Assembly: GCA_002490245.1 (NCBI GenBank)
Contig: PCNA01000003.1
Span: 1-40,054, forward strand
Source: Candidatus Bathyarchaeota archaeon B24-2
GTDB taxonomy: Archaea; Thermoproteota; Bathyarchaeia; Bathyarchaeales; B24-2
Direction of reading: 5' to 3'
Length of the DNA stretch: 40,054 nucleotides
Part shown: positions 1 to 18,481 of the stretch, piece after piece
Layout: every line of letters starts with the position of its first letter
Numbering within the stretch: the first letter of the stretch is position 1
The notes under the pieces: generated by a model
What the model saw: only the letters and a program-made list of their open reading frames with translations
What the model was told of the DNA's origin: nothing
Database searches by the model: none
Position numbers and translations under genes: made by a program

Positions 1-109
1 GATGGTTACCCATAGAGGGGTAACGAGGGAGGATATAGAATATGCTATACGAGTATTTCAAGAGGTAGTCGACGAATCGAAAAAGAAGAATGCTCGACCT
101 AAAGGTTGA
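1..109 (+). CDS. C-terminal fragment of a gene cut by the window edge (possibly a PLP-dependent threonine-aldolase/beta-eliminating-lyase-like protein)
   Basis: The frame is open from position 2 to TGA at 107-109 and translates to VTHRGVTREDIEYAIRVFQEVVDESKKKNARPKG. The family guess rests only on the resemblance of this tail to aldolase C-termini. It overlaps the convergent ORF 99..734 by 11 nt. Confidence 0.3.
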   Translation, partial: MVTHRGVTREDIEYAIRVFQEVVDESKKKNARPKG

Positions 110-734
110 CGTGAAGGTATCTTTCTATATAAGTCACGGGATCTACTTCCGTTATTTGAGCTTCGTCCACGTTTACGAGGTATATTACATGTAGTCGCGT
201 ATTCATGATCTCGTCGATCGTTACGGGAGGGTTACGGTAGTATCTATCGCATAGGCTCTTGATCTCCCAAACCTCGGTTTCACTTCGATATTTAGGTGGT
301 TTAACTAAGACTTCAGGTATTTGCATTATGTGATATGGAGGGGAGGCTAAACCAAACTTGGTTGCGTAGTTACCGTATCGCACTATCTTGCTTGCTATCC
401 TAGCCTTCCTGTAGCTTAATGGGTCTAAAGCGTGTTCAGGCGGAACGAAGCCTGTCTCGACCTCTATGATGAAGGAACCTTCCCCCTTATACCCGTAGAT
501 GTCGCAAGTTAAACTTCCATCCAACGGATGTTCTAGAGTCACGCTATAACCTTTAGCAAGCAAATCTGCAGCGCACAGGAGCTCCATAACCGAATGGTTG
601 ATCTTAACAAGCTGTTCTCGATGAAGTTTAACGAGTCTCTCTTTAAGCTCTATAAGCCTTTTCAAGGTGAGCTCATCCAGAGAAGGCTTCAGCTTATCCA
701 TCAAACTCTCCAAGTCGCGCTCAAACTTATCCAT
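99..734 (-). CDS. hypothetical protein with a coiled-coil N-terminus and a possible PD-(D/E)xK-type nuclease core
   Basis: 211-aa ORF with a Lys/Glu/Leu-rich helical N-terminus. This is followed by ELLCAADLL...TCDIYGYKGEGSFIIEVETG, an Asp then about 13 residues to a hydrophobic strand plus E-x-E, as in restriction-endonuclease-like folds. No family was recognised. Confidence 0.55.
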   Translation of the reverse strand: MDKFERDLESLMDKLKPSLDELTLKRLIELKERLVKLHREQLVKINHSVMELLCAADLLAKGYSVTLEHPLDGSLTCDIYGYKGEGSFIIEVETGFVPPEHALDPLSYRKARIASKIVRYGNYATKFGLASPPYHIMQIPEVLVKPPKYRSETEVWEIKSLCDRYYRNPPVTIDEIMNTRLHVIYLVNVDEAQITEVDPVTYIERYLHVNL

Positions 735-1004
735 TCAGAGACACCCATACGAGGTTAAACCGAAATATCTAACTAACCTTAGAGTTAATAAATTGAAGTT
801 ACAAGATTCTATCGAAAAACGCTCATCTACAGGAGATAATACCCTAAAAACAACGGCGATGATACAGGTAACGAGCAATAATATCGAATCAAGGTGGAAA
901 TGATATACATAAAACACTAAATAAAACTTATTAAAATGAAAAGCTAAAATAATTAACCCCCAAGCTGAGGAGAAGGCTTGAATAACTGAACGATGTTCGG
1001 CCAT
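735..1004 (-). CDS. possible small hydrophobic (about 2 TM) protein; may be spurious
   Basis: 89-aa ORF in an AT-rich stretch. Its stop (735-737) abuts the ATG (732-734) of the next gene, reading TGAATG on the - strand. Hydrophobic runs: WGLIILAFHF and ILLLVTCIIAVVF. Its first 16 codons are antisense to the hairpin element at 958..1125. Confidence 0.25.
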   Translation of the reverse strand: MAEHRSVIQAFSSAWGLIILAFHFNKFYLVFYVYHFHLDSILLLVTCIIAVVFRVLSPVDERFSIESCNFNLLTLRLVRYFGLTSYGCL

Positions 1005-1146
1005 CTCTTCAGGCTCCTGGAGCTAACTGTAAAGCCCTCCGTTGGGGGGCGGAGCAGTTAGTTCTAAGAGCTATGAAAGATGGTCGAGCAGAGTTTGGTT
1101 GTTCGGGCTTAGACTCAGCTTGGGGCAATCAGCATTTTTATCTTTT
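958..1146 (+). ncRNA. candidate novel rod-shaped structured RNA (168-nt hairpin plus oligo-T tail)
   Basis: Hand-folded pairings: 958-969/1114-1125 (12 perfect bp), 974-991/1093-1110 (18 bp), tandem G-A/A-G at 992-993/1091-1092, and 994-1006/1078-1090 (13 bp). Then 1008-1011/1074-1077, 1012-1016/1068-1072, 1018-1029/1055-1066 and 1034-1040/1044-1050 closing a GUU loop. There are 12 G-U pairs on the + strand against one C-A mismatch. TATA-like boxes lie at 928-937 and 944-954, and T5 and T4 runs at 1135-1146. Confidence 0.5.
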
Positions 1147-1823
1147 CAGATGCGGAGTAGTACCTTTTTTACGTATCTACGCATGAGCTTAGAGAAGTGT
1201 AGGATCACTTCTTTCGTGTAGGGTTCAACCTTTCTGAAGGATTCATCTAACGTGTCTTCTGGAATGAATTGCTGAAAGACGAAGAGTTTCGCCCCCTTCA
1301 CCAATTCTCCCATCTCTTCGACGTCCTCCTCATCCACAAACCATGGAACCGCTGTACACCTAAACTCGTAATCGACTTCTCCGTTCTTAAGTAGCTCGAC
1401 GGATTCTAGATAAGCAGAAATATCCTCCGCACCCAGCAGTTTATACTTACTCAAGGAGGTTTTAACGTCTAGGGCCACATAATCTACGTATGGTAAACAC
1501 TTCTTTAGTGTTTGGGGGAAGAATCCGTTCGTATCTAGCTTAACCATGAAACCCTCATCCTTGAGCTTTTTGAGGAAGACCGGGAGATCCTGGTTTAAGG
1601 TCGGTTCGCCTCCTGTTATAACGACGGAGTCCACATACTTCTTTCTCGACTTAAGTATCTCTAAAGCTTCCCTTTCTGATAGAAAGGGGCCTTTAGGCTC
1701 TAGGACCAACCTCCAGTTATGGCAGAAAGGGCAACGTAAGTTACAGCCTACTGTAAAGAGTATCGTAGATATTCTATCAGGGAAGTCTAGTAGGCTAGTC
1801 TTTTGGATTCCCCCGAACTTCAT
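1146..1823 (-). CDS. nrdG: anaerobic ribonucleotide reductase activating enzyme (radical SAM)
   Basis: 225 aa with CNLRCPFCHNW (CxxxCxxC) and a GGEPTL motif. It starts 7 nt downstream of nrdD. Confidence 0.85.
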   Translation of the reverse strand: MKFGGIQKTSLLDFPDRISTILFTVGCNLRCPFCHNWRLVLEPKGPFLSEREALEILKSRKKYVDSVVITGGEPTLNQDLPVFLKKLKDEGFMVKLDTNGFFPQTLKKCLPYVDYVALDVKTSLSKYKLLGAEDISAYLESVELLKNGEVDYEFRCTAVPWFVDEEDVEEMGELVKGAKLFVFQQFIPEDTLDESFRKVEPYTKEVILHFSKLMRRYVKKVLLRI

Positions 1824-1830
1824 AGGCCTT

Positions 1831-3951
1831 TCACTTTATCTGTGCAGTCGCTAAAACGACCGATTTATCGAAGGTTCTCCTTAAACGGAACTCAGCCTGT
1901 TTACCGTCGTTCCACTGGTCTACAGGCCTAAGGTAACCGACTACTCTGGAGTATACTTCGCATTTAGCTCCACAGACAGGGCAGGTGTTCTGTTCTCCCT
2001 TGAGGTAGCCGTGGGTTGGGCATATGCTGAAGGTCGGCGTTAAAGTGAAGTATGGCAGACGTGAAGCGTAGGCCACACGTTTCACCAACTCTGCTGCGGC
2101 CTTCCATGAATATAGTTTCTCGCCGAGGTAGATGTGGAAGACGGTTCCTCCCGTGTAGAGTGGTTGAAGCTGGTCTTGATGTTCTATAGCTTCGAACAGG
2201 TCTCCTGTATAGTATACGGGGAGCTGAGAGGAATTCGTGTAGAAGGGTTCAGCACCCTTAGAAAGGTACTTTTCGTTGGCAACTATTATGTCTGGATACT
2301 TCTTCTTGTCGATCCGCGCCAGCCTATAGGACGTCCCTTCCGCCGGAGTAGCCTCAAGGTTATAGAGGTTGCCTGTCTCTTCCTGGAACTCCAGAAGCTT
2401 CTCACGCATGAAGTTCAAGACTTTTATGGCGAACTTTAACCCTTCCTTGCACGCTATTCCGTAGCCGAAGAGGTTTAGAAGCGCCTCGTTCATACCTACT
2501 ATACCTATCGTCGAGAAGTGGTTCTTCCAGTACTTACCGAAACGTTCCTTTATAGAGCGTAGGTAATGCTTAGAGTACGGATATAGCCCCTTCTCTGTAA
2601 ACCTTTCGAGTACCTTCCTCTTTATCTCTAGGCTGTCTTTAGCTAGCTCCATAAGCTCCTCAAGACGCTCGAAGAATCCGTCCTCATCCTTCTGGAGGTA
2701 TCCGATCCTCGGGAGGTTGATGGTCACCACCCCTATAGACCCGGTGAGCGGGTTAGCCCCGAAGAACCCTCCACCACGCTTGCGTAGCTCACGGTTATCT
2801 ATCCTCAGACGGCAACACATACTCCTAACGTCTTCGGGTTTCATGTCGCTGTTTATGAAGTTCGAGAAGTATGGTACACCATACTTTGCGCTTAACTCGA
2901 AGATTTTCTGCGAGACAGGTGATTCCCAGTCGAAGTCTCGTGTTATGTTATAGGTCGGTATGGGGAAGGTGAAGACCCTTCCCTTAGCGTCTCCTTCAGT
3001 CATGACCTCCGCGAGGGCGATGTTAAACATGTCTATTTCTTCCTGCATCTCCCCGTAGGTGTCATCCATTATTTTCCCAGCATAGATTACCGGCTCATCC
3101 TTCATGAAATCTGGAACCGTTAAATCTAGGGTTATGTTCGTAAAAGGAGTCTGGAAACCAACCCTAGTCGGAATGTTAATGTTAAAGATGAATTCCTGCA
3201 GGGCCTGCTTCACCTCTCTCTCGTTTAACCCGTCGTAACGGATGAACGGCGCGAGGTACGTGTCGAAGTTGCTGAAGGCTTGGGCGCCGGCTGCCTCACC
3301 CTGCAACGTATAGAAGAAGTTCACCACCTGCCCCAACGCCGTCCTCAAGTGTTTTGGAGGCTTGCTCTCTATCTTTCCTGCTACACCGCCGAATCCTGAG
3401 AAGAGTAGGTCGCTTAGGTCCCAGCCGACACAGTAGGGGCCTAGGACACCTAGGTCGTGAATATGGAAGTCTCCTGAGAAGTGTGCGTCCCCTATGTTGG
3501 GTGGATAGATCCTCGTGATCCAGTATTTAGCGATAACCGTGGAGGAGAGGTAGTTGTTTAGTCCTTGCAGTGAGTAGCTCATGTTAGAGTTCTCTCGAAC
3601 ACGCCAGTCCTCCATCTCCAAGTATTTGTCTACGAGGTCTGCCGAGCTCAGGAGGGCGGCCAGCTCCCTCAAGTCTTGATGCTGCTTACGGTAGAGGATG
3701 TAAGCCTTCGCGGTCCTCGCATGACCGTTCTCGATCAGGACTTTCTCTACTACGTCCTGTATCTCTTCTACCGTGGGGACACCGTCTTCCCCGAAACGTT
3801 TCTCCAGAATCTCTACTACTTGGTCGCTTAGCCTCTCGGCAAGCTCCCTATCTTTGCCTCCAACAGCCTTAGCGGCCTTCCAGATAGCGTTAGCTATACG
3901 GCTCTTATCGAACTTCTCTAACCTTCCATCCCTTTTACGAACATATTTCAT
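1831..3951 (-). CDS. nrdD: class III (anaerobic) ribonucleoside-triphosphate reductase
   Basis: 706 aa. It has an N-terminal ATP-cone (VRKRDGRLEKFDKSRI), the finger loop SMCCRLRID, a C-terminal zinc ribbon (CPTHG...CPVCG) and the glycyl-radical motif YSRVVGYLRPV. Confidence 0.92.
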   Translation of the reverse strand: MKYVRKRDGRLEKFDKSRIANAIWKAAKAVGGKDRELAERLSDQVVEILEKRFGEDGVPTVEEIQDVVEKVLIENGHARTAKAYILYRKQHQDLRELAALLSSADLVDKYLEMEDWRVRENSNMSYSLQGLNNYLSSTVIAKYWITRIYPPNIGDAHFSGDFHIHDLGVLGPYCVGWDLSDLLFSGFGGVAGKIESKPPKHLRTALGQVVNFFYTLQGEAAGAQAFSNFDTYLAPFIRYDGLNEREVKQALQEFIFNINIPTRVGFQTPFTNITLDLTVPDFMKDEPVIYAGKIMDDTYGEMQEEIDMFNIALAEVMTEGDAKGRVFTFPIPTYNITRDFDWESPVSQKIFELSAKYGVPYFSNFINSDMKPEDVRSMCCRLRIDNRELRKRGGGFFGANPLTGSIGVVTINLPRIGYLQKDEDGFFERLEELMELAKDSLEIKRKVLERFTEKGLYPYSKHYLRSIKERFGKYWKNHFSTIGIVGMNEALLNLFGYGIACKEGLKFAIKVLNFMREKLLEFQEETGNLYNLEATPAEGTSYRLARIDKKKYPDIIVANEKYLSKGAEPFYTNSSQLPVYYTGDLFEAIEHQDQLQPLYTGGTVFHIYLGEKLYSWKAAAELVKRVAYASRLPYFTLTPTFSICPTHGYLKGEQNTCPVCGAKCEVYSRVVGYLRPVDQWNDGKQAEFRLRRTFDKSVVLATAQIK

Positions 3952-4053: not shown

Positions 4054-4977
4054 TCAGGTTTTTGATAGCAACACTACCCTGCTTTGTGGAGCTTCATCCT
4101 TAATCCTGTAGCCCGTTAACCTAGATAAGGTTTTAGAGAACTCTAGTATCTCGCTGTGGGTCGGCATAGCAGACCTAGGCAGCCTACTCTGGGCTTCCCC
4201 GATGTGCATGAAGGCCTTCGGCTCAACGAAGTCTGGCTCCGCTTTTAAAATAAGCTCAGCATATTTCTCCGGGTCTTTCAGGTTTAATCCCTTAACGAGG
4301 GTAAGCCTTAGAACGGTTCTACACTTAAAGCTCTTCATCAACTCTAGACTCTCGTTTAACTTCATCCATCCGTCGGGGATTAGAGGCCTGTTAACACGCT
4401 TATAGGTCTCCTCGTCCGGAGCACATAAACTTATATATAGGTTCGTCGGCTCTGTACTAAGCCCTCTTAAACGGTCAGGCCTCGTCCCGTTAGTGACAAG
4501 AAAAGTAGTGAAACCTCTTTTCTTGAAGGCTTCAAGTAGCTCAGAGATTCTGGGGTATAGGGTGGGCTCCCCGGCTAGACTTATAGCGGCACTTGTAGGT
4601 CTAATAGACTCCTCCCACTTCCTCCTGTCGACCTTCACGTTTCCCTTGAACCCTGTAAGTAGAAGCCGCCTAGCCTCTATACACCCGTCGATTATCTCTT
4701 CAGGGTCGTCCGCCTCAGGTTCACCGCATACAGTGTACTTCAGCGGCCTCCAACAGAACAGACACATGTGAGTACACCATATTAAGGCCGGTGTCATCTC
4801 TAAGCATCTGTGACTTTTTATCCCATACCACTTCTCCTTATAGCATACCCTCCCAGACCTTAAGCTCTCTTTGGTCCAGTGGCAGACCTCGACGGCTGAA
4901 TGTCGGCCGACTATCCTGTACCCGGCCTTCAGAAACCTGTCTTTAGCCTCGTCTGGGATCACAGATGCTTTATTCAA
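4054..4977 (-). CDS. taw1: tRNA 4-demethylwyosine synthase (TYW1/Taw1, radical SAM)
   Basis: 307 aa with VCHWTKESL...RVCYKEKWYGIKSHRCLEMTP, then CTHMCLFCWRP, the Taw1-type layout. Confidence 0.8.
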   Translation of the reverse strand: MNKASVIPDEAKDRFLKAGYRIVGRHSAVEVCHWTKESLRSGRVCYKEKWYGIKSHRCLEMTPALIWCTHMCLFCWRPLKYTVCGEPEADDPEEIIDGCIEARRLLLTGFKGNVKVDRRKWEESIRPTSAAISLAGEPTLYPRISELLEAFKKRGFTTFLVTNGTRPDRLRGLSTEPTNLYISLCAPDEETYKRVNRPLIPDGWMKLNESLELMKSFKCRTVLRLTLVKGLNLKDPEKYAELILKAEPDFVEPKAFMHIGEAQSRLPRSAMPTHSEILEFSKTLSRLTGYRIKDEAPQSRVVLLSKT

Positions 4978-17141: not shown

Positions 17142-18481
17142 GCCTTAGAGGGTTCCTCTCTGAAATGGAGGAGCGTCGAGAGGTAGTCCATATCGAGGAA
17201 TCCGTCTCTCCTCGGTTTGAGGTCTCAAAGCTAGCTATGGAGTTCGACGGAGGACCTATACTATTCTTCGAGAACGTCGAGGGAAAGAAGGTCGTCGTGA
17301 ACGTATGTGGAAGTCGGGATAGGATATGCCTTGCCTTAAAGTCAAGGCGCCAAGACCTTCATAGAAAGCTCGTTACCTCCATGCACTACTTGAGAACTCC
17401 TGAGGTAGTCGATTCGGCTCCCTCTCAAGAAGTCGAGGAACCCGATTTAGGAGATATACCTATCCTAACACACTTCGAGAAGGACGGTGGCCCATACATA
17501 ACTTCAGGTGTTATATACGCTAGAAGCTCTAAGCTAGGAGTCGAGAACGTTTCCATTCATAGGCTTCAAGTTCTAGACGACTCGACCCTAGCCATAAGGC
17601 TTGTTCCGAGGCATCTATACAAGTTGTGGATGGCCCATAAGATGGAGAAAAAAGACTTGGAAGTCTCGGTCTCTGTCGGCGTCCACCCAGCAGTTCATCT
17701 AGCAGCCGCAAGCTCACCGCCGTTCGGCGTAAACGAGTTCCATATAGCGAACAGCCTTTTAGCCGGAGAACTTAAACTGGTTAAATGCTTGAAGGTGGAT
17801 GCCTACGCTCCTGCCGAAGCGGAATTGATCATCGAAGGCATAATCTCATGGGAGAGGGAGGCGCTGGAAGGCCCTCTCGTGGATATTCTAGGCACATACG
17901 ACGTCCAGAGAATGCAGCCGATAGTCGAAGTTAAGGCTGTAACGCACAGGAAAGACTATGTATACCAAGCGATCGTCCCTTCGAGCATGGAGCACAAGCT
18001 ACTTATGGGTCTCCCTAGAGAGGCTTTGATCTGGGAGGCTGTCTCTAAGGTCGTTCCTGAGGTTTATGGCGTCAGGTTGACTATGGCTGGAGGTGGATGG
18101 CTGCACGCCGTGGTCTCGATAAGGAAGCAGAGGGAGGGAGACGGAAAGAACGCTCTTCTCGCGGCGCTTGCAGCGCATCCAAGCCTAAAGCACGTTGTCG
18201 TAGTGGACGAAGACATAGACGTTTACGATAGCGAGGCGGTCGAGTGGGCTATAGCTACGAGGTTTCAGGCAGATAGGGACCTCATAGTGGTGAAAGACGT
18301 GAGGGGGTCGACGCTCGACCCCTCCTCCGACCAAGAGAGAGTCCTAACTTCGAAGGTCGGGGTCGACGCGACCAAACCTATGGATAAGCCTAAAGAGAAG
18401 TTTGAGCCTGCGACTATACCATCGACGAGTAGGATAGAAGGGCTTATCGAGAGTTTAAGGAAGCGGTTAGCTATAAGGTGA
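17138..18481 (+). CDS. UbiD-family decarboxylase, probably trans-anhydromevalonate 5-phosphate decarboxylase
   Basis: 447 aa with UbiD-like length and layout. It is convergent (2-nt gap) with the aconitase-X genes of the archaeal mevalonate pathway. Confidence 0.65.
   Translation: MSLRGFLSEMEERREVVHIEESVSPRFEVSKLAMEFDGGPILFFENVEGKKVVVNVCGSRDRICLALKSRRQDLHRKLVTSMHYLRTPEVVDSAPSQEVEEPDLGDIPILTHFEKDGGPYITSGVIYARSSKLGVENVSIHRLQVLDDSTLAIRLVPRHLYKLWMAHKMEKKDLEVSVSVGVHPAVHLAAASSPPFGVNEFHIANSLLAGELKLVKCLKVDAYAPAEAELIIEGIISWEREALEGPLVDILGTYDVQRMQPIVEVKAVTHRKDYVYQAIVPSSMEHKLLMGLPREALIWEAVSKVVPEVYGVRLTMAGGGWLHAVVSIRKQREGDGKNALLAALAAHPSLKHVVVVDEDIDVYDSEAVEWAIATRFQADRDLIVVKDVRGSTLDPSSDQERVLTSKVGVDATKPMDKPKEKFEPATIPSTSRIEGLIESLRKRLAIR

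Follow-up and report, generated by a model that had tools for sequence, protein, structure and literature searches.

In bacterial rsr-yrlA loci, the YrlA gene is kept beside the gene for its partner protein, and 6S RNA represents an abundant class of protein-sequestering RNAs. In type III toxin-antitoxin systems, the toxin gene is preceded on its own strand by tandem RNA repeats, the msr-msd ncRNA of a retron is adjoined by a reverse transcriptase gene, and divergent sRNA/regulator gene pairs, such as OxyS-oxyR in bacteria, are a well-known arrangement. Few uncultured archaea are as abundant in sediments as Bathyarchaeia; to our knowledge, their noncoding RNAs are almost entirely undescribed, and a search of the literature on Bathyarchaeia ncRNAs or a hairpin of this type found nothing relevant. 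GC-rich ncRNAs of AT-rich hyperthermophiles, the HgcC/E/F/G class, were reportedly described by Klein et al. 2002.

We analysed a 40,054-nucleotide stretch of DNA (the window) from Candidatus Bathyarchaeota archaeon B24-2, in which a preliminary description had noted a long hairpin that it did not recognise as tRNA, SRP RNA, RNase P RNA, a C/D RNA or an H/ACA RNA. This hairpin matches no Rfam family at threshold. A scan of the window with the 4227 covariance models of Rfam 15 at gathering thresholds returned only tRNA-Pro, a permissive scan of positions 800-1300 returned only sub-threshold look-alikes of miRNA precursors, and permissive scans of eight homologous loci gave no match at the RNA positions.

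Several likenesses to described RNAs can nevertheless be drawn. As with Y RNA and YrlA, the putative RNA is small and stand-alone, its ends pair into a sequence-conserved closing stem with a conserved internal irregularity, its distal part is variable, its 3' end is U-rich, and its gene adjoins that of a candidate protein partner. However, it has neither an Rfam Y_RNA match nor a tRNA-like module, its body is a long near-perfect duplex, and the neighbouring gene encodes a PD-(D/E)xK-like protein of ~210 amino acids that lacks a TROVE domain, rather than TROVE/Ro60. It shares with 6S RNA a size of ~180 nt, a rod-like end-to-end fold and an architecture that is conserved over sequence, but lacks an Rfam 6S match and the large central bubble that mimics an open promoter (interior loops do not exceed 2x2 to 4x4 in the window clade, and distant homologues have small A-rich ones), and its archaeal host has no sigma70 holoenzyme. 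The long, G-U-rich and near-fully paired hairpin also resembles a eukaryotic pre-miRNA. This resemblance is one of shape only, with 39.4 bits for MIR6457 and 26.5 bits for MIR2863 against gathering thresholds of 140 and 94, whereas the host, as an archaeon, is not known to have a Dicer pathway, and the conserved basal module and loops suggest a folded RNP.

Among L7Ae K-turn/K-loop RNAs (C/D and H/ACA sRNAs and RNase P RNA), the likeness lies in a tandem G-A/A-G that abuts a helix and in a 3-nt UUM element 5' of the GA; all 12 sequences contain the GA...GA and UUM elements. In a K-turn, the tandem sheared G-A/A-G adjoins a 3-nt bulge and the canonical helix continues directly on the other strand. 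Here, though, the 'non-bulged' strand carries four extra unpaired nucleotides (GNAN) between the GA and helix 2, creating a 6x5 loop that is not canonical, and C/D boxes, ACA boxes and Rfam matches are absent. When compared by hand, none of the canonical K-turn, sarcin-ricin/loop E, UAA/GAN or 11-nt receptor motifs fits the conserved loop cleanly. With the HgcC/E/F/G class, the locus shares a structured G+C-rich island (G+C content of 0.51-0.60) with its own putative promoter, lying in an A/T-rich intergenic spacer of a thermophilic archaeon, but it has no similarity to those Rfam families, and both lineage (Bathyarchaeia) and architecture differ. In contrast to type III toxin-antitoxin systems, there is a single hairpin without tandem repeats, divergent from the protein gene, and in contrast to retrons, no reverse transcriptase domain occurs among the called genes within ~3-4 kb in any locus examined.

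Fold and candidate gene signals of the hairpin

Positions 958-1125 of the + strand form a single continuous hairpin with a predicted free energy of -115.4 kcal/mol (RNAfold, window 950-1150). The preliminary description had proposed a comparison with shuffled sequences, and none of 200 shuffles was as stable (mean -60.8, s.d. 4.4, z = -12.3). The fold comprises 72 base-pairs (33 G-C, 26 A-U and 13 G-U), so the earlier tally of ~71 base-pairs with 12 G-U was slightly low, whereas the continuous hairpin it described is upheld. The same region of the minus strand reaches -75.2 kcal/mol (z = -6.3), where the 13 G-U pairs become 13 C-A mismatches. A local-fold scan of the whole window gave no second fold close to -115 kcal/mol; the runner-up, at positions 18037-18242 (-87.5), lies inside a CDS, has z = -2.8 and was dropped.

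The hairpin is closed by a helix of 12 perfect base-pairs between 958-969 (CCCCAAGCUGAG) and 1114-1125 (CUCAGCUUGGGG), as had been reported. Above it lies a purine-rich internal loop whose 5' side spans positions 970-975 (here GAGAAG, family consensus GAGNAN) and whose 3' side spans 1109-1113 (here UUAGA, and UUCGA in some lineages). In the window sequence, A974 and G975 are also able to pair with U1110 and U1109, which leaves the GAGA/AGA loop (970-973/1111-1113) of the original account. The 5' strand of the second helix (GCUUGAAUAACUGAAC, 976-991) contains an invariant wobble pair, U978-G1106, and is followed by a tandem G-A/A-G 2x2 internal loop (992-993 opposite 1091-1092). The remaining irregularities listed earlier were all found as well, namely two 1-nt bulges (C1007 and A1073), one C-A mismatch (C1017/A1067) and a GUU triloop (1041-1043) that caps an apical 7-bp G/C-rich stem (1034-1050). 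This stem is bounded by an A-rich internal loop (1031-1033/1051-1053) that had been given as 4x4 but is 3x3 (AAA/GGA) in the minimum free energy structure, a trivial difference; the loop is 4x4 in the L163 homologue.

Sequence elements expected of an archaeal promoter precede the hairpin on the + strand (922-936). These are an A-rich BRE-like TAAAAC (922-927) and a TATA box, TTATTAAAA (928-936), which precedes the first paired base by 22-30 nt, matching the 20-30 nt originally estimated. This arrangement predicts a transcription start near positions 957-960. The signal is conserved in position and strand: in nine of ten lineages the distance from the start of a TTAT(A/T) box to the first paired base is 26-32 nt, the tenth has TTATC instead, an A-rich stretch precedes the TATA box in the RNA-bearing lineages, and BRE/TATA elements are located at -26 to -32 in all ten. 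Downstream, an oligo-T tract on the + strand (1135-1146) consists of a T5 run (1135-1139) and a T4 run (1143-1146) that begin 10 and 18 nt past the last paired base. Runs of at least four T likewise begin 1-11 nt past the last paired base in eight of ten lineages. The tract is probably an archaeal terminator, which would yield an RNA of ~180 nt. It is from sequence that we infer this transcript, both of its ends and its strand.

Both flanking genes, nrdG (1146-1823) and ORF211 (99-734), are located on the minus strand, as the preliminary description had indicated. ORF211 appears to have expression signals of its own, including a TATA-like box on the minus strand (TTTATTAA, 785-792) that resides ~50-58 nt upstream of its ATG, and a GGGTG Shine-Dalgarno (SD)-like element close to this ATG. 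Most homologous loci have A/T boxes of this kind along with GGTG/GGAG motifs. Because ORF211 has its own promoter and SD, the hairpin should reside outside the ORF211 mRNA.

A probable RNA gene kept head-to-head with ORF211

Ten of 12 sampled lineages carry a homologous hairpin that lies upstream of the ORF211 homologue and on the strand opposite to it. One further lineage (L170/L171) retains an RNA remnant of ~60 nt, and the twelfth (L169), a single locus drawn from the ORF211 sequence cluster with the most members, has no RNA upstream. Rod homologues accompany ORF211 homologues of 87%, 76%, 64% and ~57-60% identity, always on the strand opposite to the ORF. Which gene occupies the far side of the RNA, however, varies between lineages: it may be nrdG or encode a thiamine-binding protein, SHMT, ThiS, DUF2283, an MFS transporter, RtcA, Cdc48 or DNA ligase. 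The hairpin is linked to ORF211 and not to nrdG. Although the genome around them has been rearranged many times, the RNA gene and ORF211 have stayed head-to-head.

A linkage to nrdG was ruled out separately. Among the 160 loci from an NrdG search, only those from the same species carry the hairpin, and no comparable hairpin occurs within 600 nt downstream of nrdG in the ~155 other Bathyarchaeia loci. A covariance model of the family (R1) produced matches only at the positions upstream of ORF211 in ~1.28 Mb searched, which included the ~155 Bathyarchaeia nrdG loci. BLASTN with the hairpin against all loci yielded, beyond the same species, weak matches (E ~0.5) of positions 1006-1033 to a conserved stretch that several relatives share near locus coordinate 3,830, ~2.2 kb upstream of nrdG. 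These were judged to be chance matches because the window's own nrdD has none.

Every homologue folds as a rod (z of -3.5 to -17). Rod lengths range from ~130 to 176 nt, and interior sequence, length and apex drift while pairing is kept; the apex is not alike across clades. Distant homologues carry an A-rich internal loop at a distance from the base that matches that of the tandem G-A/A-G in the window hairpin.

Covariation was counted on sequence-only MAFFT alignments of 12 sequences from 10 lineages, with shuffle controls that ignore phylogeny. Reliable alignment across all clades is limited to the outer 22-38 pairs, and interior pairing is supported per clade and per sequence. In the alignment of all 12 sequences (A4), the basal 22 base-pairs are 95.7% paired, with double changes in 12 pairs, an outcome matched by 0 of 500 shuffles; slid controls are 18-53% paired. 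Helix 1 is 97% paired and has double changes in 7 of 12 pairs, while helix 2 has them in 5 of 10. Another alignment (A3) covering 38 base-pairs is 93.3% paired with 16 compensatory pairs, and four distant sequences aligned together retain 53 pairs, 15 of them compensatory. The orthologues and compensatory changes that the preliminary description had wished to see therefore exist.

Sequence conservation is concentrated at the base of the rod. The U-G wobble (A4 columns 22/166, U978-G1106 in the window) is present in 12 of 12 sequences, GCUU/RGGC in the second helix and GGCUU-M-GA on the 3' side are invariant, and G13, A15, G16 and A18 (numbered on the first A4 sequence) are invariant or nearly so. 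As judged from these alignments, the conserved basal module consists of a closing helix of 10-12 base-pairs, an asymmetric, purine-rich loop of 5'-GAGNAN / 5'-UUMGA, and a GCUU/RGGC helix in which one U-G pair never varies.

The G-U pairs had originally been cited as evidence for the strand of the transcript, since they would be C-A mismatches on the opposite strand. This argument holds in the window clade, where RNA-strand folds contain 10-17 G-U pairs compared with 1-3 in opposite-strand folds. Eight of nine substitutions at Watson-Crick pairs, within the species and its closest relative, produce G-U, and the ninth breaks pairing on the + strand; changes to G-U keep the + strand pair and break its minus-strand counterpart. 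In distant homologues, however, the asymmetry fades or reverses (5 versus 8 in L173, 9 versus 6 in L174 and 5 versus 8 in L176), and in L173 the opposite strand folds better (-78 versus -66). For this reason, the family-wide strand call rests mainly on the promoter, the terminator and the invariant U-G pair. The earlier proposal of selection on a + strand transcript is supported by the lack of an Rfam family at threshold, by the single copy without target-site duplication, by the compensatory changes in orthologous loci and by the conserved promoter and T-runs.

We conclude that the hairpin is one member of a previously undescribed Bathyarchaeia family of ~170-nt, near-fully double-stranded small RNA genes, and that this structured ncRNA family is real and new.

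The ORF211 protein family

ORF211 (99-734, minus strand) belongs to a family of ~210-amino-acid proteins, and an alignment of 40 sequences contains 49 invariant columns. At the sequence level, phmmer and profile searches revealed no Pfam, NCBIfam or PDB match, and a Pfam search with 10 distant family members likewise gave none. An AF2 model of high internal confidence (pLDDT 92, pTM 0.87) was compared by Foldseek, and the best matches are all PD-(D/E)xK nucleases. The top PDB matches are CdiA-CT 4g6v (E = 2e-4, prob 1.0), XisH, the R2 RLE domain, AF1548, SfsA, Hjc, Can2 and EndoMS. Given TM-scores of 0.3-0.47, the restriction-endonuclease-like alpha-beta-beta-beta-alpha-beta core of the modelled protein is a prediction at the level of fold. 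Residues E51, D78, E91 and E93 are invariant, as are K83 and K116, and the beta3 motif reads E-V-E-T, not ExK.

Possible roles of the RNA and its partner

On balance, we favour the interpretation that positions ~958 to ~1140 of the + strand are an independent gene for a structured ncRNA of ~170-180 nt, which represents a new Bathyarchaeia family and is coupled to ORF211. In this scenario, archaeal RNA polymerase would start ~26 nt downstream of the BRE/TATA, at the first base of the stem, and would stop at the oligo-T runs just past the last paired base. The transcript would then fold end-to-end into the rod. Its conserved basal module may serve as a protein-recognition platform, and the rod may act as a stable double-stranded spacer or scaffold, with added stability in this hydrothermal-vent lineage. 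The RNA might act with or on the ORF211 protein, a predicted PD-(D/E)xK-fold nuclease, or be its substrate or decoy, such that RNA and ORF211 would constitute a two-gene RNA-protein module. Our best guess is that the RNA is a protein-binding scaffold, a regulator or a substrate coupled to ORF211.

The finding is one of a conserved RNA gene family, defined from putative promoter to terminator, with no Rfam match, to which is added an unannotated conserved protein family, predicted to be a nuclease and syntenic with the RNA. Its newness resides at the level of the RNA and protein families, and the functional class could be that of an ordinary scaffold or sponge RNA. A near-perfect dsRNA of ~70 base-pairs made on purpose by an archaeon would be unusual. 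Because we know of no dsRNA-processing pathway in most archaea, the RNA/ORF211 pair offers a direct experimental handle.

The most serious competing explanation, though we consider it clearly the less probable one, holds that the RNA gene is real but functions independently of ORF211 as a partner, with their adjacency reflecting a shared divergent promoter architecture or regulation. ORF211 might then control transcription of the RNA, by analogy with OxyS-oxyR, and the RNA might work elsewhere as a sponge or scaffold like 6S, Y or vault RNAs. All evidence for the RNA gene applies equally to this explanation, and the divergent sRNA/regulator arrangement is a familiar pattern. Moreover, conservation is far stronger in ORF211 than in the RNA, and ORF211 is more widely kept, which, given that L169 has no RNA and L170/L171 only a degenerate remnant, argues against an obligate RNP. 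Yet adjacency and orientation are held in 10 of 12 lineages even though every other neighbour turns over, ORF211 has no recognisable DNA-binding regulator domain, and it appears to retain intact the acidic D/E/E set usually seen in active PD-(D/E)xK enzymes. Conserved complementarity between the RNA and the 5' UTR of ORF211 was not found by eye.

A more specific form of this coupling is speculative and, in our view, rather unlikely. Here, PD-(D/E)xK-fold ORF211 would recognise, specifically, the conserved basal module of a dedicated dsRNA hairpin of ~70 base-pairs and either process it into functional small RNAs or be controlled by it. If true, this would constitute an RNase III-independent and Dicer-independent hairpin-RNA pathway in TACK archaea. 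We hold it still more doubtful that the rod is a precursor or dedicated substrate cut, perhaps by ORF211 as a nuclease specific for dsRNA or structure, into small duplex-derived RNAs in the way of hairpin RNAs and pre-miRNAs, or an RNA that titrates or autoregulates such a nuclease. The near-perfect 72-bp duplex with its many G-U pairs, the free variation of its paired interior and the adjoining gene for a predicted nuclease would suit such a role, and the sole Rfam look-alikes are miRNA precursor models, albeit by shape alone (39 bits against a gathering threshold of 140). Distant homologues, however, are far less perfectly paired and conserve internal and apical loops, a pattern that better fits a folded scaffold, and no Dicer, RNase III or Argonaute context was found in the loci examined.

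Could the hairpin act as DNA rather than RNA? A cruciform, a protein-binding or recombination site, or a single-stranded DNA hairpin acted on by the PD-(D/E)xK neighbour would account for a long inverted repeat beside a predicted DNA-type nuclease fold, whose matches include Hjc, XisH and restriction enzymes. As single-stranded DNA, the + strand does fold better than the minus strand (-47.8 versus -36.1), and distant homologues fold about equally on both strands. We nonetheless judge this very improbable, because a function as duplex DNA gives no reason to keep complementarity by way of G-T intermediates on one strand, or for an invariant G-T/C-A position. In addition, the promoter at fixed distance and the T-runs are conserved on one strand, and the sequences searched show the element as a single chromosomal copy in surroundings that have nothing of a plasmid, virus or transposon.

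The likelihood is lower again that the hairpin is part of a minus-strand transcript, be it a 3'-UTR or terminator hairpin belonging to nrdDG or a regulatory structure upstream of ORF211. It does begin 20 nt past the nrdG stop codon, is followed by T-rich sequence on the minus strand, and still folds there with -75 kcal/mol. Against this stand the 13 C-A mismatches on that strand, its absence downstream of nrdG in the ~155 other Bathyarchaeia loci, its retention beside far-side genes that are unrelated or point the other way, and the location of the ORF211 TATA box and SD ~150 nt downstream of the hairpin. Finally, a MITE-like mobile palindromic repeat, which the preliminary description had itself named as an alternative and which the long inverted repeat with perfect 12-nt termini might suggest, is effectively refuted by the presence of one copy in the 40-kb window and none in ~1.15 Mb of other Bathyarchaeia DNA, by flanks on either side of the CCCC...GGGG ends (...AATTAAC and CAATCAG...) that share no direct repeat and hence show no target-site duplication, by a position that is fixed relative to ORF211 in orthologous loci, and by arms that covary rather than decay.

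With regard to a virus or plasmid origin, an RNA pattern scan of viral contigs gave 0 matches, BLASTN against phages gave none, and ORF211 had no match in viral contigs. Members of the ORF211 family are also present in MAGs labelled Korarchaeota and Nitrososphaerota.

A rod-shaped hairpin and its fold

The element at window 958-1125 (+) is conserved, single-copy and structured, and it is distinguished by conserved transcription signals (promoter and terminator) on one strand, covarying base-pairs, an invariant wobble pair and linkage to the divergent gene ORF211. A preliminary description had proposed that this segment of the + strand folds into one continuous hairpin. Folding of window 950-1150 (+) with RNAfold indeed yields a single hairpin at 958-1125 with a predicted energy of -115.4 kcal/mol, compared with a mean of -60.8 ± 4.4 for dinucleotide shuffles of the same segment (z = -12.3; 0 of 200 shuffles as stable). 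The reverse complement reaches -75.2 kcal/mol (z = -6.3). The 72 pairs of the rod comprise 33 G-C, 26 A-U and 13 G-U, beginning with a perfect 12-bp terminal helix at the base. The same set of interruptions as had been listed is recovered, namely an asymmetric GAGA/AGA internal loop, a tandem G-A/A-G (992-993/1091-1092), bulges at C1007 and A1073, a C1017/A1067 mismatch, and an A-rich loop under a 7-bp apical stem that ends in a GUU triloop. Also present as described are a TATA box (TTATTAAAA, 928-936), T5 and T4 runs that begin 10 and 18 nt past the stem, and neighbouring ORFs that both lie on the minus strand.

Scanning the whole window and 40 related loci for local folds revealed no second one of comparable stability. 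The runner-up in the window (18037-18242, +) has an energy of -88.7 kcal/mol, but it resides within a 447-aa ORF and is unremarkable (z only -2.8).

Matches to known RNA families were sought with Rfam models. At gathering thresholds, the window yields only tRNA-Pro. A permissive scan of the hairpin region adds only plant miRNA-precursor models, which score far below threshold (39 bits vs 140, and 26 vs 94) and resemble the rod in shape rather than in sequence, and permissive scans of eight homologous loci return nothing at the RNA. Likewise, full-text literature searches found no description of such an RNA. We conclude that the rod hairpin is a real feature and constitutes a new RNA family.

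Several minor features of the region were also noted. An 89-aa ORF (735-1004, -) that overlaps the spacer and also the hairpin's 5' arm was called here and in L001, a locus of the same species; it has no Pfam match, is uncalled in the relative whose ORF211 is 87% identical, and is most likely spurious. The A-rich promoter region (937-949) is 92% complementary over 13 nt to the T-rich terminator region (1136-1148), and comparable flank pairing is seen in the L163 and L168 folds. This complementarity is probably a by-product of an A-rich BRE/TATA opposite oligo-T, and such pairing would lengthen the stem if transcription began further upstream. Two independent short-read assemblies break within the hairpin (L002 stops at window 972, and L166 begins inside the RNA). 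The long inverted repeat has probably caused an assembly artefact here, and such breaks may leave the RNA under-represented in MAGs.

Linkage to ORF211, a predicted nuclease

The hairpin is flanked on one side by nrdG (1146-1823, -), which encodes the activase of NrdD, followed by nrdD (1831-3951, -) and a TYW1-like radical-SAM gene (4054-4977, -). On its other side lies ORF211 (99-734, -), which encodes a 211-aa protein without a Pfam match. NrdG relatives in GTDB are all from Bathyarchaeia at no more than 69% identity, and those in JGI metagenomes are from the same species at 99% identity, followed by the next relatives at ~70%. Among ~155 Bathyarchaeia nrdG loci, only the same-species L001, L083 and L084 show a strong fold in the 600 nt that follow nrdG downstream, and these are likewise the only loci in which ORF211 adjoins nrdG. 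The rod hairpin is not an nrdG element.

Contigs carrying ORF211 homologues at graded distances were then used to follow the RNA. Homologues P0002 (87% identity; L163-165), P0003 (76%; L167) and P0004 (64%; L168) have as far-side neighbours nrdG, a thiamine-binding protein gene on the strand opposite the ORF, and SHMT, respectively. Upstream of each of these three ORFs lies an intergenic gap of ~410 nt. A rod of 164-172 nt (-82 to -114 kcal/mol) forms there when the strand opposite the ORF is folded, and the fold of the ORF-sense strand is much less stable. Recognizable versions of the RNA, with position and orientation kept, also accompany P0017, P0025, P0047, P0071, P0112 and P0091 (~57-60% identity), and the far-side neighbours of the distant homologues are unrelated (ThiS, DUF2283, an MFS transporter, RtcA, DNA ligase and Cdc48). 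The rod hairpin travels with ORF211, and their head-to-head linkage is persistent.

The RNA is shorter in two lineages (135-141 nt), and the P0036 lineage (L170 and L171) carries a ~60-nt remnant. In this remnant (L170 2835-2896, -; same element in L171) the 5' motif CAAGUUGGGGAGCACGCUUGAACAGGUUGACAAAG is kept and closes as a short hairpin lacking the 3' basal strand and the T-run, which suggests that the RNA has decayed or been remodelled in some ORF211 lineages. No RNA homologue was detectable in the upstream spacer of the P0007 lineage (L169, 2810-3000), which is only 191 nt long. L169 is the sole locus sampled from the largest sequence cluster of ORF211, to which 81 of the top 120 matches belong. 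In L176, the RNA's far-side neighbour (1480-2517) encodes the RNA-end-processing enzyme RNA 3'-terminal phosphate cyclase; this single case may be coincidence.

The ORF211 family (~210 aa) is tightly conserved and widespread in Bathyarchaeia, from which most of its 2879 database clusters (E < 1e-3) derive; these are named only 'hypothetical protein'. An exhaustive profile search returned only 246 representative clusters, nearly all single-domain proteins of 200-245 aa. The few distant clusters with a source name are labelled as Korarchaeota or Thaumarchaeota/Nitrososphaerota MAGs. No sequence-level family was found in Pfam, NCBIfam or the PDB, even by profiles or from distant members, and the partner protein family is as unannotated as the RNA family. 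An alignment of 40 members has 49 invariant columns, including E51, D78, K83, E91, E93, K116 and R119. In the AlphaFold2 model (pLDDT 92, pTM 0.87), a helical hairpin at the N terminus precedes an alpha-beta-beta-beta-alpha-beta core, and the Foldseek matches of this model in the PDB are almost all PD-(D/E)xK nucleases. They comprise the CdiA-CT tRNase 4g6v (E = 2e-4), XisH, R2 RLE domains, AF1548, SfsA, Hjc, Can2/Cdn1, EndoMS, Bax1 and arenavirus cap-snatching endonucleases. Given the low TM scores (0.3-0.47), the match is to the core fold only. ORF211 is thus predicted from its model to adopt a PD-(D/E)xK nuclease fold.

Functionally, the most economical guess is a joint action of the two, in which the RNA would serve as a scaffold, regulator, decoy or substrate of ORF211 as a predicted nuclease. 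This proposal is weakened because some ORF211 lineages are without the RNA. Alternatively, the RNA might be an independent sponge or scaffold, or a hairpin precursor of small RNAs.

Conservation, probable strand and copy number

Sequence-only alignments of the RNA homologues reveal a conserved basal module of three parts, with (C)CCAAGCUGAG/CUCAGCUUGG(G) as its closing helix, then a purine-rich loop that is asymmetric (5'-GAGNAN / 5'-UUMGA), and then a GCUU/RGGC helix. Further into the RNA, sequence diverges and pairing is kept. In alignment A4 (12 sequences), 95.7% of cells in 22 basal pairs are paired (shuffled, 82.9 ± 1.3) and 12 pairs have changed on both sides (shuffled, 5.7 ± 1.6); 0 of 500 shuffles match any measure, and slid registers are 18-53% paired. 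Two further alignments give 16 pairs changed on both sides among 38 (A3, nine sequences, 93.3% of cells paired) and 15 among 53 that extend to the apex (A5, four distant sequences). Compensatory changes are therefore present in orthologous loci, as measured over ~10 independent lineages with structures derived from the same sequences and shuffles that ignore phylogeny. All 12 of the 12 sequences keep U978-G1106 as a U-G wobble, which would be an invariant C-A mismatch if read on the opposite strand. The sequence-conserved basal module is proposed to be a protein-recognition site, and the rod a stable spacer.

Four lines of sequence evidence favour the window's + strand as that of the RNA. Within the window clade, G-U pairs number 10-17 in the fold of the RNA strand vs 1-3 for the opposite strand, and the strands differ by 30-50 kcal/mol. 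The RNA aligns without gaps to its two strain variants and to its counterpart in the 87% relative, and eight of the nine substitutions striking Watson-Crick pairs produce G-U and one produces A-C, where half of each would be expected without constraint (one-sided binomial p ~0.02). A change to G-U keeps the pair on the + strand and breaks it on the - strand, and a DNA-level palindrome is effectively excluded. The G-U versus C-A asymmetry put forward in the preliminary description therefore holds in this clade, but it is gone in distant homologues (5 vs 8 in L173, 9 vs 6 in L174, 5 vs 8 in L176), and in L173 the opposite strand folds better; both observations count against the strand assignment.

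Archaeal promoters have a TATA box centred near -26/-27, and termination occurs at oligo-T. An A-rich BRE-like stretch and a TTAT(A/T) TATA box start 26-32 nt before the first paired base in 10 of 10 lineages (TTATC in one), and T runs of at least four start 1-11 nt past the last paired base in 8 of 10. This geometry matches the archaeal pattern and predicts an RNA that would begin and end at the stem, and we infer that the hairpin is transcribed as an RNA of ~170-180 nt. At 50-60 nt before its ATG, ORF211 carries a TATA-like box of its own, and it also has a GGTG/GGAG Shine-Dalgarno element, which places the hairpin outside the ORF211 mRNA; a minus-strand UTR element is effectively excluded.

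Covariance model R1, built from nine sequences, matches only the RNA positions upstream of ORF211 in ~1.28 Mb of sequence, and gives no match at E < 0.05 in loci with nrdG but without ORF211. On this evidence it occurs as a single copy at a specific position and is not a dispersed repeat. Inspection of the flanks showed no target-site duplication, and a MITE is effectively excluded. Neither the RNA nor ORF211 was found in searches of viral and phage sequences. A segment of the 5' arm (1006-1033) weakly matches (23 of 28 nt, E ~0.5) a stretch near coordinate 3,830 in L011, L015, L018, L023, L052 and others; in several relatives this stretch is conserved and lies ~2.2 kb upstream of nrdG. It is lacking in the window's own nrdD, and the similarity was judged to be chance.

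The rod has 53% G+C, against 46% for the genome, and lies in an A/T-rich spacer. Its exceptional stability (72 bp) fits the hydrothermal origin of the clade's contigs. The distant homologues in L172, L173, L174, L176, L177 and L179 share apical and internal motifs that are missing in the window clade. Close to the apex they have an 'AUCAAA' stretch, and at a distance of ~35 nt from the base there is an internal loop rich in A (ACAAAGG / CCAAAC); L177 and L179 have in common the 12-nt loop AAAGCRGCKGAA.
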